The translations under genes were made by a program, and so were the position numbers. From Rhodospirillales bacterium (GTDB lineage Bacteria > Pseudomonadota > Alphaproteobacteria > Bin95): DNA of 64,000 nucleotides. The notes beneath the pieces are model-generated. The model did not search any database. It was not told the DNA's origin and was given only the letters and a program-made list of their open reading frames with translations. This document shows, in pieces, positions 1 through 39,849 of the stretch. Each line of letters begins with the position of its first letter. Within the stretch, counting starts at the first letter, position 1. The stretch lies in NCBI GenBank assembly GCA_038143065.1, contig JAYQLI010000035.1, forward strand, positions 480,001 to 544,000, read 5' to 3'.

Positions 1-32
1 CCAAGGCTGCTTGATTGTTTGAAGTTTGTCAT
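1..32 (-). CDS. 5' end of an unidentified gene running off the window (MTNFKQSSSL...)
   Basis: ATG at 32-30 directly preceded by GAGG on the minus strand, downstream of tRNA-Ser. Too short to identify. Confidence 0.3.
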   Translation of the reverse strand, partial: MTNFKQSSSL

Positions 33-67
33 CCTCAATACAGATACTGATGGTTATCGCCAATTTA

Positions 68-157
68 TGGCGGAGAGAGAGGGATTCGAACCCTCGAAGG
101 ACTTGCGCCCTTAACGGTTTTCGAGACCGCCCCATTCAACCACTCTGGCACCTCTCC
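68..157 (-). tRNA. tRNA-Ser(CGA)
   Basis: Reverse complement GGAGAGGTGCCAGAGTGG...GCGGT-CTCGAAA-ACCGT...long variable arm...GGTTCGAATCC...CCGCCA. Anticodon CGA, CCA encoded. Confidence 0.97.
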
Positions 158-260
158 ATGGTGAGTTAGAGGTCTAACTCTCAAGGCCGCGGAAGTTAGC
201 TGAGTAGATAGGTGCGTGCAAGCGCTTGAAACTCTTTAAAACGGAAGTTCCTTCTACACG

Positions 261-938
261 TCATGCAACTGGTAAAAGTGTCGATACGTAAGTTTCCCTT
301 CGGGTTAGATTTGCCTGGAATTCCTTTTCAAAAACATCGGCTACTGACCCTTTAACAGTCTCACATTCCATTAAGTTTAATGCCCACTTCTTTGTATTGG
401 GATATGCATCTAATAGATGTGTTTTGAGGAACTGGTCAGCAAATAAAAAACGTTGAAAGAATGGGGCATACGCTGCGTCCACAAGACATAATTTGTCTCC
501 ACCAAAATATAGGCCTTCGCTCTTATCGACCGATAAGGCGTATTCAACGCGGTCCAGTCTCTTTGTGGCTGTTTCGTACAAAACCTCTGAATCAGCTTTA
601 GTTTTGGCGTAATAGACAGCAGAAAGACTTGCAGCAAAATCTGAAACAAAATCAGTCCAAGCCCTATGGCGTGCTTTTAATATTGGGTCAGATGGATGAA
701 GTCGTGGTTCAACTGCTTCGTCTAAGTATTCGGCAATAGCGTTTGACTCAAACAATGGCACTTCATCTACAAGTAACACTGGGACCTTGCCGTGAGGCGA
801 GATTTTTAGAAACCAGTCCGGCTTGTCACGAAGATTGATATAAGTGGTTTTAAATTTCACACCTTTTGCACGCAGGGCAATCACGGCCCTTTGAACCCAA
901 GGTCAGGTGTATGAACTAATTAAATGTAATTTAGGCAT
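261..938 (-). CDS. Glutathione S-transferase (Cys-GST/omega-like), probable selenoprotein with Sec at codon 12
   Basis: ATG at 938 with AAGGA RBS reads MPKLHLISSYT-TGA-PWVQRAVIAL, in frame with the called ORF (GKVPVL, LFESNAI GST motifs). The TGA (905-903) aligns with the C of the CP(W/Y)VQR active site. Confidence 0.9.
862..902 (-). promoter_or_regulatory. Putative bacterial SECIS element
   Basis: 12 nt after the UGA there is a 17-nt hairpin AGGGC-CGUGAUU-GCCCU with GU in the apical loop. A lower stem CCUU/AAGG is also possible. Confidence 0.65.
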
Positions 939-966
939 TTATTTTTTCCTTTGTAATCAATCATTC

Positions 967-2567
967 CTAATCAGCAGCATCTGCAAGAAGCATATCTGAA
1001 CCTTTTTCGCCTATCATAATTGCAGTGGAGTTAGTATTTGCTGTCGTAACTGCAGGCATTACTGATGCGTCAATGACACGGAGTCCTTGAACCCCACGGA
1101 CCTTTAATTGAGGATCCACTACGGCCATCTTGTCGTCTTCTGGTCCCATCTTACACACACCGACTGGGTGATAAATTGTATTGCCAGTTTGACGTGCAAA
1201 GTCAGCGATTTCATCGTCGGATTGAATCTCCCTGCCTGGTAAAGTTTCTCCTACAGAATACGGTTGGAACGCAGGTTGGGAAAAAATCTTTCGTGCTTGT
1301 CGAACTCCTTCAACTACGACGCGCACATCGTTTTCCGCGGACATGTAGTTAGGCCTAATTATTGGGTATTCTCTAGGATCTGAAGACTGCGCCATTATCG
1401 TCCCGCGGCTTTCAGGTCGGGCAATGGAACAGGCGATTGTCATTCCTGGTTCCTTTTCCAGCGCCCCAAATTTCTGGGGATCATAGCTCGCGGGTGAGAA
1501 GAGTAGTTGTATGTCAGGGCTAGCTAGGCCTTCACGACTATGGGTAAATACCTGAGCTGATGAAACACCAAAGGTAAGCGCCCCGCGTCCTTCAACGAAA
1601 AAAAGCGAACACCTTCGCGCATGAGGCGTAAGCCGCGAGACAATTGGTTTATCGAAACCGCATCTTTAGCTCTATGAGAGACACGAGCGATATAGTGGTC
1701 AGAAAGGTTTTGACCAACTCCAGGTAAATCATGGAGGGGTTCAACCCCAATAGTTTTTAAATGCTCAGCGGAGCCAACCCCTGATATTTGAAGAAGGTGC
1801 GGAGAGTTCACTGAGCCTCCAGCAAGAATTACTTCGGCGTTCGCCCTGACTTCGTTTGACTTATTGCCCTGAGAAAACGCTACTCCAATGCACTTTTTGC
1901 CCTCAAAAAGTAGTTTTGTTGCTAGCGCGTTAGTTATGATTTGAATATTTTCTTTATTCTTAACCTTCGAAAGATAAGTTTGAGCAGTTGAGCCACGCCT
2001 GCGGCCAATTTCTTGACATTTGGGAATACCCTACGCCAACACGCTCGTAGCCATTCAAGTCTTCTGCAAAAGGATGTCCAGCTTGTTGGGCAGCTTCGAC
2101 GAATTGGTGGGTTAATGGAAGAATCGTTCTGTAATCTTCTACCTGAAGAGGGCCATCCGCCCTCTGGTTTCACCAGTTCCTGATACGTAGCTTTCCGATC
2201 TTCTGAAGTAAGGTAAAACATCATCATATGACCAGCCACGGCACCCTGATTGCGCCCAGCTATCGTAGTCTGCCTGATGGCCTCTGATATAAAGCATGCC
2301 ATTGATTGAAGATGAACCACCTAAGGTTTTTCCTCTGGGCCAGTGGATTTCCCTTCCAGCAGTGCCTTTTTCGCCTTCTGAGTGATAATTCCAATTAAGC
2401 TTTGGATGATACAGCAGCTTTAGTATTCCAGCAGGAATATGTATCCATGGGTGAATGTCCTTTGGACCAGCTTCCAGAAGAACAACGTGCTTGCCTGCTT
2501 CTGCGAGACGCATTGCCACTACGCAGCCAGCAGAGCCTGCGCCTACTACAACATATTCTGCATTCAT
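967..2567 (-). CDS. GMC family oxidoreductase (choline dehydrogenase-like), split by frameshifts
   Basis: VVVGAGSAG FAD motif, RGKTLGGSSSING, GVGQNLSDH, YHPVGVCKMG, GLRVIDAS across ORF pieces 2139-2570, 1524-1811 and 967-1443. Confidence 0.9.
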
Positions 2568-2700
2568 CACTGGGCTCCTGGTAGCAACTCTTCACCCTGA
2601 ACAAACCATAGCTATTACATGAACTGCAACGGCAATTTTGCTTGCTCATCACTTAATGACAGATGATGATAACTAAAAAAAGCGGATAGGTGGGGGCTCG

Positions 2701-3476
2701 ATGTCTAAAACACGCAAAAAATTTGCAGATCAAGGATCCGTGATTGCTAGGGATCTAGGACTGAGCTTACCTGATGGTTCACCGGGACTTGCCGAATTTG
2801 CAGCTGAAGCTGGGTTCGCAAGTATTTGGGATAGACCCGCACTCTCCAAAGAAGATAGATTTTTCCCTGTATTGGCAACTCTCGCGGCTCTGGACAGGCA
2901 AGAAGTTCTGTCGGCTCACATCAAAGCGGCTTTGAATATTGGGTTAACGCCCAGAGCGATTCAGGAAATTATTATTCAATGTGCTCTCTATGGTGGTTTG
3001 CCTCTCGCAATTGCGGGGCTTGCGACTGCAAGCCAGGTGTTTGACGACCGCGGGCTTTCCAAACCCGAAACCCAAGCTATTGAAAACGACCAGGCTAACT
3101 GGACCTGTGATGAGCTTGCGCGAGAGGGACGGCGAATAATGAAGGAGTTGCATGGGGAACGTTCTGGTCAGGGTTATGCTGCTCCAGAAGACCCAGCTAC
3201 CTCTGCTCTTTATGAAGTAGCTATTCGTTATGGCTATGGGGTTATTTGGTCTCGGCCAGGGTTAACCTGGCGCCAGAGGATGTTAGTGGGTGTGGCAGCT
3301 TTTACCTCACTGCGTCTTTCTCAGACATTAACCAAATTTGCTGAGTCTGCACTTGGCCAAGGCCTATCCAGGAGCAGGTGGTTGAAGCCATAATGCAGAC
3401 AGCGCCTTATGGTGGGTTTCCACCTGCATTGACGGCTCTTTCTCAAGTTAAGCCAATACTGTTTCCAGATTCATGA
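2701..3476 (+). CDS. Tandem carboxymuconolactone decarboxylase (CMD/AhpD-like) domain protein
   Basis: Two repeats of IWxRPxL...ExIxQxAxYGGxP. One frameshift near 3370 restores EQVVEAIMQTAPYGGFPPA...* (stop 3476). Confidence 0.85.
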
Positions 3477-9964: not shown

Positions 9965-10648
9965 ATGAACGTTATTCGCCTCGACGCGGCGGAGCCTCTG
10001 CGGCTCGCGCTGCCTAAAGGTCGTATTCTTAAAGAGTTAAGGCCAATTCTCGAGGCTGCAGATATTCATCCAGAAGCAGCGTTTGAGGACCCTGAAACAC
10101 GTAAATTACGTTTTTCAACCAATATCCCGGGGTTGGAAATTGTTCGGGTGCGCAGCTTTGATGTTGCAAGTTTTGTTGCGTTTGGAGGAGCAGATTTCGG
10201 TATTGCAGGTCGGGACGTTGTTATGGAATTCAATGATCCGGAGGTTTATGCGCCTCTTGATCTCGGGATTGGATATTGTCGGCTTGCGGTTGCCGAGCCG
10301 GCAGCAATGGCTCCAGAGGATGACCCCACACGGTGGAGCCACGTTCGCATAGCAACTAAGTATCCGAATATAACTGCCAAGCACTTTGCTGCGCGTGGAG
10401 TGCAGGCAGAGTGTATTAAGCTAAACGGTGCTATGGAATTAGCCCCAGTTCTAGGGCTCTGTTCTCGTATTGTAGATTTAGTTTCAACTGGGTCTACACT
10501 TAAGGCTAATGGACTAGTTGAAATAGAGCATATTGCTGATATTTCTTCGTTATTGATCGTTAATCGCACACAGATGAAGACCCGTTCACATCTGATGAGA
10601 GGGTGGATAGAACGATTCCGGAGTGCACTTAATGCCCAGGTGGCTTGA
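9965..10648 (+). CDS. hisG: ATP phosphoribosyltransferase, short form
   Basis: [39 protein letters not shown]. Confidence 0.96.
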
Positions 10649-36767: not shown

Positions 36768-37688
36768 ATGTCACTTTTCCAACCTCCTAAGGATATTAAA
36801 GCAGAGGTTTTTGTAAGCCTGCCTGATAAATTTCGTGTGAAGGGAAAAGTGCCTGAGTGGGCAATCATTAATAAGGCTGGGTCAACTTTAGACAGTTTTC
36901 TTGAGGGCCCTGCTTTTGATAAAGCCGGAAATTTATATTTCGTTGATATAGCTTGGGGACGTATTTTTAAAGCAGATCCCGCAGGAAATATCGATTTAGT
37001 AACAGAGTATGATGGTGAACCAAACGGCTTAAAAGTTATGGCTGATGGTTCCCTAATGGTGGCAGATTACAAAAATGGTTTAATGTTGGTAGACCCAGTA
37101 TCTGGTTTGGTCACACCCCATTGCACGCGGTATCGTCTAGAAGCTTTTAAGGGTGTAAACGATTTATGTATTTCTAAGAACGGAACAATTTGGTTCACTG
37201 ATCAGGGACAAACGGGTCTGCAAGATCCAACTGGGCGGATTTTCCGGCTACAGGTTGATGGCTCCCTAGACTGTTTCCTTGAGGGAATTCCCAGCCCTAA
37301 TGGGTTGGTTCTTAACCAATCAGAAACTATTCTTTTTATAGCCGTTACACGCGGTAACAATGTCTGGCGTGCACCGATAATGCCAGATGGAATGCCCAGC
37401 AAGGTGGGCGTGTTTTTACAGTTGTCTGGTGGCGGCGGACCAGATGGGATGGCTTTGACAGCAGATGGGGGATTAGTCGTAGCTCATGCTGGCATGGGCT
37501 CTGTATGGGTTTTTTCACCATTAGGTGAACCATTATATCGCGTGAGGTGCGAAAAGGGCATTACATCGACCAATGTCGCATTTGGTGGAGCTAATAATCG
37601 GGATCTTTACATCACAGAAAGCGAATCTGGTCATATTCTAAAGGCAAAGCTTCCTGTTTCTGGACTTCCTCTGCAGCACTTAAACTAA
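36768..37688 (+). CDS. SMP-30/gluconolactonase family protein
   Basis: FLEGP, PNGL, VNDL, GPDG, TNVAFGG. Confidence 0.9.
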   Translation: MSLFQPPKDIKAEVFVSLPDKFRVKGKVPEWAIINKAGSTLDSFLEGPAFDKAGNLYFVDIAWGRIFKADPAGNIDLVTEYDGEPNGLKVMADGSLMVADYKNGLMLVDPVSGLVTPHCTRYRLEAFKGVNDLCISKNGTIWFTDQGQTGLQDPTGRIFRLQVDGSLDCFLEGIPSPNGLVLNQSETILFIAVTRGNNVWRAPIMPDGMPSKVGVFLQLSGGGGPDGMALTADGGLVVAHAGMGSVWVFSPLGEPLYRVRCEKGITSTNVAFGGANNRDLYITESESGHILKAKLPVSGLPLQHLN

Positions 37689-39849
37689 TTGAATCGAGTG
37701 GCTATCTGATCTTTCGATAAAAGTTCCAATTACCTTTGCTTCTGGATAGCCGTTGGAACGTAATGAATTTATTGCTAATTCAGAACTCTGAGCCGGAATA
37801 GCTGCTAGAAGGCCTCCAGCTGTTTGAGGGTCAAACAGAGTCGGTTTTTCTTGCCGAACCGAAAGGTTGGAAATTCGTGAAGCAAAAGCAGAATTAGGTT
37901 CAGCCATCGTGCTCTCTATTCCAGCTTTTAAGGCTTTAATTGCTCCTGATAAACAAGGGATCGAGTCACTGTTAATTTGAGCAGATAAGCTAGCACCGTC
38001 AGCCATTTCTATTAAATGTCCTGCAAGTCCAAATCCGGTAACATCAGTTAGAGCATGAGCACCCAAATCGGCTAAAATCTTTGAAGCACATTCATTGGAT
38101 TTTCTCATTTGAAGTATTGCTTCTTCAAAATCACTATGATCGGCAGCAGCATGCATATTTGCCGCTAAAATGGCTCCAAGGCCTAATGGTTTTGTAAGGA
38201 TGATATGATCGCCTAGTTCTGCTCCTGCTTTATGCTTAATCATTTCATTTGATATGAACCCATTAACACTAAGACCAAGAGCTAATTCCGCGCCTTCACC
38301 GGTATGTCCTCCAACCAATGTTGCTCCTGCTTGTTCCAAGGCATCCTTTACTCCAGTAAGTAACTGGAACAAGTCACGTTCCGTAGCGCTTTCGCTGCCA
38401 AAAGGTAAAATCGCAGTCACTAGCGCGCTGGAAGGCTTTGCGCCCATTGCATAAATGTCACTAAGAGCATGCTTTGTAGAAATCTCACCAAATAAATAAG
38501 GATCACCTAGGAAATCTCGGAAATGGTCAACTGTTTGTACTAATTTCGCCCCTGGTGGAGGCGTAATTATCGCTGCGTCATCCCCTGTGTGATTTGATAG
38601 GCCAAGCCGCTTTAATACCCGCCTCAAGATGGGACTTGATATTTTTGCTCCACAACCCCCACAACGCATTTGATGATTAATCTCTTGAGATTGCGCTGTT
38701 TCGGATGAAGCGGTGGGCATTGGAGGAAGTTTTGAATAACGAGCCATCCACCTTCGGTCGAGGATGTCCTTCCACTGCCAAACCCAATGGCCTGAAAGCG
38801 CCAACTTACCGTACGACGCTACTGCGGTTTCATGGCCAGTTGTAATGATAGCCAAAGTTCGTTTTTGTGGTCGCCACTTTAACAATGGTATGCCTAGTGC
38901 AGCTCGGCGGAGATTTTGAGCAAGGAGGGGGCCTTGGCGAACTGCGTAAACGCCTGACTTAGCAACGGGAGAGTTGCTAAACTCAGCGCAATCCCCAGCA
39001 GCAAATATATCTGGATGACTCCGACTCTGAAGTGATGAATTGATCTTTAAAAATCCATTTTCGTTTGTGGCGAGTCCAGTTAATGCCAGCCAATTGTGAG
39101 CTGCCGCCCCTGTAGCCAACACGAAAAAATCGGCTTTGAGCTTTTCGCCAGTATGCAGAATTACCTCCGCCTCATCGTTTGCAATGGCGCGAGCTTTAAA
39201 TCGCAATTTAATATTTTTACTGACAAGGGCCTTTTTATTTGGCGTCGAACTGAAGCCCCATGTCCGGGCAAAAGGTCATCTGTATCCGATATTAATGTTA
39301 TAGAGGCTGGATTGTTTTTTTATGCTCAAAATACGCATGTAACGATATCGCTGTTTCTATTCCCCCGGCACCAGCACCAGCAATTACAATCTCAGGATGC
39401 GCAACGTTCTTTTGGTCAAGCTTTTGTAGGCTTTTTTAAGAACTGTTGTATTGGTTTTACTGGGAATGCATACTTAGACGCACCCTCAATATCTGTAATG
39501 GGTGGGGTTGAGCCAATATTAACAGATAGGACGTTGTAAGCGACTGGTGGTCTGTTTTTAGGATGACTTCCTGACTAACGGGATCAATATTGATCGCCTT
39601 ATCACAGATAAAATCAATTTTTCCCCACCGTGTTAGCTTATTTAAATCAATATAGCTTTCATCAGCTGTATATTCGCCACGAATAAGTCCAGGAAGCATT
39701 CCTGAGTAGGGCGTTCTCATATCCTCCGATATAACTGTTAACCTCACGCCCGGCTCAGGGCGCATGGCAAATGCCTTGATCACTGCCAGATGGGCGTGAC
39801 CACCACCAATGAGAACAATATCTTTTTCTACAGGGGCTGCTTGCTGCAA
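37680..39849 (-). CDS. selD: Selenide,water dikinase fused to an N-terminal FAD/NAD(P) oxidoreductase (frameshifted)
   Basis: N-term LIGGGHAH, PYSGMLPG, FAAGDC, GVYAVRQG. C-term MRCGGCGAK, DDAA, QTVDHF, GGHT, TDVTGFGLAGHL, DPQTAGGLL. Confidence 0.93.

Follow-up and report, generated by a model that had tools for sequence, protein, structure and literature searches.

We analyzed 64,000 nucleotides (nt) of DNA from a Rhodospirillales bacterium (GenBank assembly GCA_038143065.1, contig JAYQLI010000035.1, positions 480,001 to 544,000 of the forward strand). This whole stretch is called the window, and positions are given in its own numbering unless stated otherwise. Near its beginning, on the minus strand, lies a gene for a glutathione S-transferase (GST) with an in-frame TGA codon that very probably encodes selenocysteine (Sec, U). 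The gene runs from an ATG at 938-936 through 11 codons (MPKLHLISSYT) to the TGA at 905-903, resumes as PWVQRAVIALR, and ends at an ordinary TGA stop at 263-261. The frame 938..261 thus comprises 678 nt, or 226 codons including the stop (225 residues), with no indel needed. A Shine-Dalgarno-like AAGGA at 951-947 of the same strand, presumed from its sequence to act in initiation, is followed by 8 nt and then the ATG. An earlier interpretation of this DNA, made from the letters alone (the sequence-only reading), had placed here an upstream ATG preceded by a ribosome-binding site and an uninterrupted frame through the TGA, and its coordinates and codon count are correct. In the A-run between AAGGA and ATG, at position 942, contigs from two public sequencing runs (X5 and X7, see below) are one base shorter, leaving a 7-nt spacer.

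Ordinary annotation gives a different picture of the gene. The sole open reading frame (ORF) listed at the locus under translation table 11 is 261..884 on the minus strand, a 207-residue product starting at an internal GTG, as the sequence-only reading had stated. Neither AGGA nor GGAG, as a Shine-Dalgarno-like sequence, occurs within 15 nt upstream of this GTG, and the codon at 884 is an internal Val in orthologues. Judged by an AlphaFold2 model of the full-length protein, the shortened product would be missing both strand 1 of the thioredoxin-like domain and its active-site turn. The same truncation recurs in the public protein collection searched: among the 120 top protein clusters, 45 hold N-truncated proteins of 206-217 residues whose called start lies just past the TGA, and these clusters are miscalled Sec forms. 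The concern that standard annotation would cut the protein short and discard its active site is thus borne out both by the table 11 ORF and by these clusters. Gene calling in effect starts the GST at the GUG of the putative Sec insertion sequence (SECIS) loop described below, thereby losing the active site; automatic Sec annotation could build on a family model started from the orthologues collected here.

Conservation of the TGA and the Sec machinery

The TGA is conserved in every sample of genomes that we searched. Searched in six frames, the window's genome and those of 40 relatives gave matches (E<=1e-20) in 22 genomes, and 20 of the 22 matches have TGA at the column of residue 12: the window gene and its counterparts in 19 relatives, which are 56-96% identical. 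TGC stands at this column in the other two matches, the most distant ones (40% and 29% identity). A scan of GTDB with one genome per species found 313 relatives; in the best 80 of these 313 loci, which we analyzed, the column holds TGA in 78 and TGC in 2. These 80 loci come from Alphaproteobacteria metagenome-assembled genomes (MAGs) of Rhodospirillales/Rhodospirillaceae, Defluviicoccus, Methyloligellaceae, Hyphomicrobiaceae, and Paracoccaceae, with some from Gammaproteobacteria/Pseudomonadales MAGs, and the closest of them is a Rhodospirillales MAG at 96%. Among 401 genomes drawn evenly from the window's class, with matches counted at E<=1e-60, TGA is found in all 10 GST matches. Pooling the first set with the GTDB loci and removing duplicates yields 89 distinct TGA genes and 4 TGC genes (loci L041, L042, L107, and L112). 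By the marks used to recognize selenoproteins, therefore, the UGA has orthologous UGA codons at the same column in other organisms, and it aligns with Cys in homologues as one half of a Sec/Cys pair; the sequence-only reading had looked to both patterns as checks on its proposal.

Cysteine forms extend well beyond the four TGC genes, since full-length proteins with CPWVQR, at 55-63% identity, make up 75 of the 120 top protein clusters. In a FastTree phylogeny of 89 Sec and 79 Cys rows, built with the Sec/Cys column masked and the 45 truncated rows excluded, Sec and Cys rows are interleaved and at least 9 changes between the two are required, 2 of them forced by strongly supported branches. Codons upstream of the TGA vary synonymously in the orthologue alignment A3 (TCA/TCC/TCG/TCT; ACC/ACT/ACG/ACA) while the peptide H-L-I-S-S-x-T is kept, and the upstream stretch is therefore translated in this frame. 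Both the 11 upstream codons and the P-W-V-Q-R lying between the TGA and the GTG are conserved as in-frame protein.

We also asked whether the TGA is a true base call, comparing window positions 1-2800 with Logan contigs of four public runs. A contig of run X1, which may be the assembly's source sample, covers 895-1293 (record 4) with 0 differences from the window, and a contig of run X5 covers 784-946 (record 18) with 5 differences (at 851, 857, 861, 873, and 894); both keep the TGA, which confirms the bases at 903-905 in independent assembled data. Among the differences listed for the contigs of X7 and X15, none falls at 903-905. The nearest relative, genome G008 (96% protein identity), has the TGA too. 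The X15 contig derives from a salt-marsh metatranscriptome and covers 445-1176 (732 nt, 31 differences), running from the 5' half of the GST across the TGA into the end of the gene upstream. It hints that the locus of a close relative is transcribed across both genes.

The genome carries the genes of the Sec machinery, for which the sequence-only reading had advised a search. The genes selA (TIGR00474, 496 bits) and selB (TIGR00475, 435 bits, a 630-residue ORF) adjoin each other on the same strand, selD (TIGR00476, 280 bits) lies within the window at 37788-38672, and a tRNA-Sec (selC) scores 71.5 bits in Rfam (gathering score 47) and is called tRNA-SeC with anticodon tca by ARAGORN. All four exceed the curated cut-offs, and the window's contig carries every one of them. 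Of the 401 genomes of the class sample, 55 have selA, namely 9 of the 10 carriers of the TGA-containing GST vs. 46 of the 391 other genomes, counts that are not independent given that the genomes are related; the lone carrier with no selA match (G035) is 77% complete. Five further carriers checked separately all have selA. A reassignment of TGA in the genetic code was considered and rejected: TGA terminates 543 of the genome's 1492 open frames of at least 300 codons, as well as the GST gene itself.

Fold, active site, and known relatives

The read-through product matches the Pfam families GST_N_2 (1.8e-19), GST_N_3, GST_N, and GST_C, and orthologues at 56-96% identity share this architecture. 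A profile of 16 family members matches Leishmania thiol-dependent reductase 1 (TDR1; 2e-41) and human GSTO1 (4e-38). In both alignments the U column falls on the C of a C-P-F motif, which is Cys32 in the numbering of 1eem, the catalytic residue of GSTO1. The AlphaFold2 model of the full-length protein (predicted local distance difference test 92.3, predicted template-modeling score 0.89) has a strand at 4-8 and a helix at 13-24, placing U12 at the N terminus of helix 1. Foldseek ranks GSTO1 first (template-modeling score 0.83), followed by Tau-class GSTs, with GSTO1 and Tau matches scoring 0.77-0.85. The family alignment shows two invariant motifs, K-V-P-V and F-E-S, which would correspond to the cis-Pro and to the gamma-glutamyl site.

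These features are those of a Cys-type GST: a thioredoxin-like GST_N domain, a helical GST_C domain, and a C-P-aromatic-type motif (here U-P-W-V-Q-R) with Sec in place of Cys. GSTO1-1 (PDB 1eem) and TDR1 (4ags) share the GST_N and GST_C fold with the window protein, and their catalytic Cys in C-P-F aligns with U12 in U-P-W. The window protein is bacterial, unlike its human and Leishmania counterparts, and differs from GSTO1 in having Sec for Cys and 11 rather than 31 residues before the catalytic residue, at an identity of about 28%. Typical of the mammalian Omega class is a stretch of about 19 extra residues at the N terminus. In the window protein, U12 is preceded by just 11 residues, and the alignment to GSTO1 starts at residue 23-24 of the latter; the extension is absent, and we therefore name the protein Omega-like and not a member of the Omega class. 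No other Cys, and hence no resolving cysteine, is conserved in the family alignment. A lone Sec without a second Cys fits a mono-selenol mechanism in which glutathione would resolve the intermediate.

Other sources of functional information gave little. No NCBIfam model scores above its cut-off (the best, SspA, reaches 51.8 bits vs. 314), and the release searched holds no curated equivalog of this protein. Around the best 80 of the 313 GTDB loci, no neighbor family is common to more than 13 of the 80. A hint at function from operon context was accordingly dropped, the most common neighbor occurring in only 13 loci.

Selenoproteins of this kind have been reported from marine metagenomes. The Sargasso Sea survey of 2005 by Zhang, Fomenko, and Gladyshev has an entry "Glutathione S-transferase, COG0625" with 4 sequences among its 15 new selenoprotein families (PMC1088965), a table of the 2008 Global Ocean Sampling study by Zhang and Gladyshev gives 12, 8, and 1,036 in its row for GST (PMC2398784), and a 2026 review lists a "GST-like protein, PF13409" and describes the functions of such proteins as largely uncharacterized (PMC13188914). 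The remark in the sequence-only reading that Sec-containing GSTs are known from marine metagenomes and little characterized agrees with these sources. A literature phrase search for the characterization of a natural Sec-containing GST returned nothing relevant, all 52 of its matches concerning selenocysteine-containing glutathione peroxidase. The published family and the window gene have in common a GST fold with a match to PF13409 and a single UGA in frame; for both, Cys homologues are widespread and the origin is proteobacterial, from marine or estuarine habitats. Their identity rests on the shared COG0625/PF13409 class and on habitat. The window GST is thus an additional member of a known selenoprotein family that lacks biochemical characterization. 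What is new is the breadth of the family, about 89 distinct Sec-form genes across Alpha- and Gammaproteobacteria MAGs. For a family known mainly from metagenome catalogues, the window provides a genome-anchored example with the machinery on one contig, and also a natural Sec/Cys pair for enzymology. Its value lies mainly in annotation and in this enzyme pair; it opens no new kind of system.

Candidate SECIS element and alternative explanations

The candidate SECIS core is a 17-nt hairpin at 874..890 of the minus strand (AGGGC / CGUGAUU / GCCCU), put forward on its geometry and on the constraint on its loop codons. It begins 12 nt past the UGA, its loop begins 17 nt past the UGA, and the loop GUG at 884-882 is the very GTG that table 11 uses as a start codon. 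The hairpin alone has a free energy of -6.4 kcal/mol; a predicted extended stem-loop enclosing both the UGA and the hairpin (858..909, minus strand) belongs to a 71-nt fold with a minimum free energy of -17.6 kcal/mol. Within the GST gene, few segments are as stable as the 51 nt that begin at the UGA (z -3.0, rank 0.01). We took the fdhF-type SECIS of Escherichia coli as the comparison system. Like it and the bacterial SECIS (bSECIS) model, the window hairpin lies within the coding sequence just 3' of the UGA and has a small loop with G and then U; it shows no sequence similarity to the fdhF type and has no Rfam match. The bSECIS model, as set out in the 2026 review, has a loop of 3-9 nt in which position 1 or 2 is a G, commonly with G or U next to it, a stem of 4 base pairs (bp) or more, a UGA-to-loop distance of 16-37 nt, and a minimum free energy <= -7.5 kcal/mol (PMC13188914). 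The window hairpin has a 7-nt loop with G at position 2 and then U, a 5-bp stem, and a spacing of 17 nt, which lies inside the model's range, and it reaches the energy threshold only if the extended stem is counted.

Sequence constraint in the family points to the same loop. Across the 89 TGA genes, entropy was computed for the third position of 35 conserved four-fold codon columns. The lowest values are found at Ala18 GCC (85/89 C, H = 0.26) and Val19 GUG (85/89 G, H = 0.30), the two codons that form the apical loop, and all of the remaining 33 columns are at 0.91 or higher. The pairing registers around this conserved loop differ between the window's genus and most other orthologues, in which another stem flanks it: a 6-bp helix of A3 columns 24-29 with 42-47 (GCGCGC with GCGYGC), paired in 95.1% of 450 cells and with 5 GC-to-AU double changes at one pair. 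Loci L107 and L112, nested Cys genes and the only TGC genes among the best 80 of the 313 loci, have lost the conserved GCC-GUG loop codons, and the Ala codon after their TGC column has changed to Ser. Loss of the loop is as expected if a SECIS constraint were released once Sec had been replaced.

Several results weigh against the Sec interpretation, and most of them concern this element. When the 3' partner of the 6-bp stem is shifted two columns 5'-ward, 80% of cells are still paired, because the stem is a GC repeat. An Rfam scan of 700-1000 at E<=10 found no SECIS family, returning only chance-level matches to freshwater-2 and snoR124. RNAalifold on 75 sequences did not recover the hairpin and returned only a trivial one of 5 pairs that covers the UGA and shows no covariation; with 18 sequences, the result was a stem in three parts that had only 1 compensatory pair. 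The window fold is no better than those of dinucleotide shuffles (z -0.68, 45/200 as good), and stability after the UGA is modest across the family (mean z -0.74). A geometric test based on the bSECIS model is satisfied at 45 of the 89 Sec sites and at 10244 of 15284 control codon positions (67%), with 0 of the 89 sites reaching -7.5 kcal/mol by the contiguous stem alone; being unspecific and too strict on energy, this test was not counted as support. Taken together, codons +1 to +14 show no significant excess of constraint over the other codons (p = 0.20), and the invariant loop also encodes a conserved Ala-Val, with GCC and GUG being common codons in GC-rich relatives. Beyond the RNA element, the X15 contig over the TGA site is no proof of transcription, even though it comes from an RNA library, and the breaks in selA and selD described below would, if real, impair the Sec machinery. 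A SECIS in the GST gene is, on the sequence data, likely but not demonstrated, and it is the weak point of the Sec interpretation.

Four other explanations were weighed. The TGA might be a nonsense mutation in a GST decaying into a pseudogene, in the company of split genes in the window such as the GMC oxidoreductase (967-2570) and the selD fusion, or a TGC or TGT might have been missequenced or misassembled as TGA, in an assembly that clearly does contain consensus errors. The conservation pattern seen here is one that neither a pseudogene nor a sequencing error can produce: the same TGA recurs in 89 distinct orthologues at 56-96% protein identity, with the protein conserved on both of its sides and synonymous variation upstream. 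The breaks in the neighbors are indels in or beside homopolymer runs and are absent from G008 or from independent contigs, which upholds the contrast that the sequence-only reading had drawn between the GST and the indel-broken genes around it. The errors seen in the assembly are likewise indels in or beside base runs and not substitutions, and the TGA is kept in the X1 and X5 contigs and in G008. We give decay virtually no chance of being right, and a miscalled base just as little.

Slightly more room, though still very little, is left for two readings that accept the TGA as genuine. Translation could start at the GTG at 884, or the UGA could terminate. The product would then be a GST-like protein of 207 residues that lacks the catalytic residue, and the 11 upstream codons would be an unrelated short leader peptide. 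This is exactly the ORF given by table 11, and 45 of the 120 top clusters are called in the same way, but it is highly improbable in the face of the in-frame conservation on both sides of the TGA, the strand and active-site turn that the product would lose, the internal Val at this codon in orthologues, and the lack of AGGA or GGAG upstream of it. Alternatively, a near-cognate tRNA (Trp or Cys) could read the UGA and give a full-length product without selenium. Bacteria do show low-level UGA read-through, and the weak SECIS statistics also speak for this possibility, to which we assign a similarly small probability: it is opposed by the concentration of selA in TGA carriers, by the Cys found at the column in homologues, as expected of Sec/Cys pairs, and by the constraint on synonymous sites in the hairpin loop.

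Returning to the Sec interpretation, we consider it very likely that 938..261 encodes a cytosolic Omega-like (Cys-type) GST whose catalytic residue is a Sec specified by the in-frame UGA. The sequence-only proposal that the UGA encodes Sec is supported by the conservation of the column, the Cys forms, the machinery, and the active-site alignment, and none of the outcomes that it had named as refuting was encountered in the contigs, the genome, or the relatives. Established here are the reading frame, the TGA/TGC pairing, the fold class, the alignment of the active site, and the fact that the genome carries the Sec machinery, and we infer from sequence the incorporation of selenium, the binding of SelB to the hairpin, and the identity of the substrate. 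In the mechanism we propose, translation would begin at the ATG at 938, and at the UGA (905-903) SelB carrying Sec-tRNA(Sec) would be recruited by the stem-loop directly downstream, the core of which would be the hairpin at 890-874 with its GU-containing apical loop. Sec would be inserted, and translation would then run on until the normal stop codon (TGA, 263-261). If Cys32 of GSTO1 is taken as the analogue, the selenolate, located at the N terminus of helix 1, would attack glutathionylated or oxidized substrates, forming a Se-S mixed intermediate with glutathione that a second glutathione would resolve. The chemistry expected from this analogy is of the thiol-transferase, deglutathionylase, or dehydroascorbate-reductase type.

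A bolder and rather doubtful extension, although less remote than the explanations set aside above, is that the orthologue group is a widespread marine selenoenzyme and not a sporadic Sec/Cys variant. TGA occurs in ~96% of the 93 distinct genes; in this reading the group would nearly always be the Sec form, with a family-specific SECIS marked by an invariant CC-GUG-AU loop and possibly with an activity that Cys forms lack. If this were true, such an activity might be, for example, glutathione-peroxidase-like, or the reduction of selenium or arsenic species.

Neighboring genes and probable assembly errors

Just upstream of the GST, a gene for a GMC-family oxidoreductase (967-2570, minus strand) is split into at least 3 frames (967-1443, 1524-1811, and 2139-2570). 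Contigs of three or four of the public runs depart from the window here by indels of 2 nt at 1598 (in an A7 run), of 1 nt at 2009, and of +1 C at 2159. The selD gene is part of a fusion at 37680..39849 (minus strand), recognized by TIGR00476, whose N-terminal domain is NADH-dehydrogenase-like (pyridine-nucleotide-disulfide oxidoreductase). In G008 this fusion is a single open frame of 738 codons, and against G008 the window copy shows 7 one-base indels in or beside short base runs, mostly A-runs, that split it. The selA gene of this assembly, which lies outside the window on the same contig (locus L002, 3370-4766), has an in-frame TAA that the comparison with G008 traces to a 1-nt deletion and a 1-nt insertion ~90 nt apart, again in or beside A-runs. 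Because the breaks in selA, selD, and the GMC oxidoreductase lie in or beside homopolymer runs and are not found in G008 or in independent contigs, they look like homopolymer consensus errors of the assembly and not like decay.

On the other side of the GST, ~100 nt downstream of its stop, lies a tRNA-Ser gene (anticodon cga; 68-157, minus strand). Contig depth at this tRNA is very high because many unrelated organisms share it.

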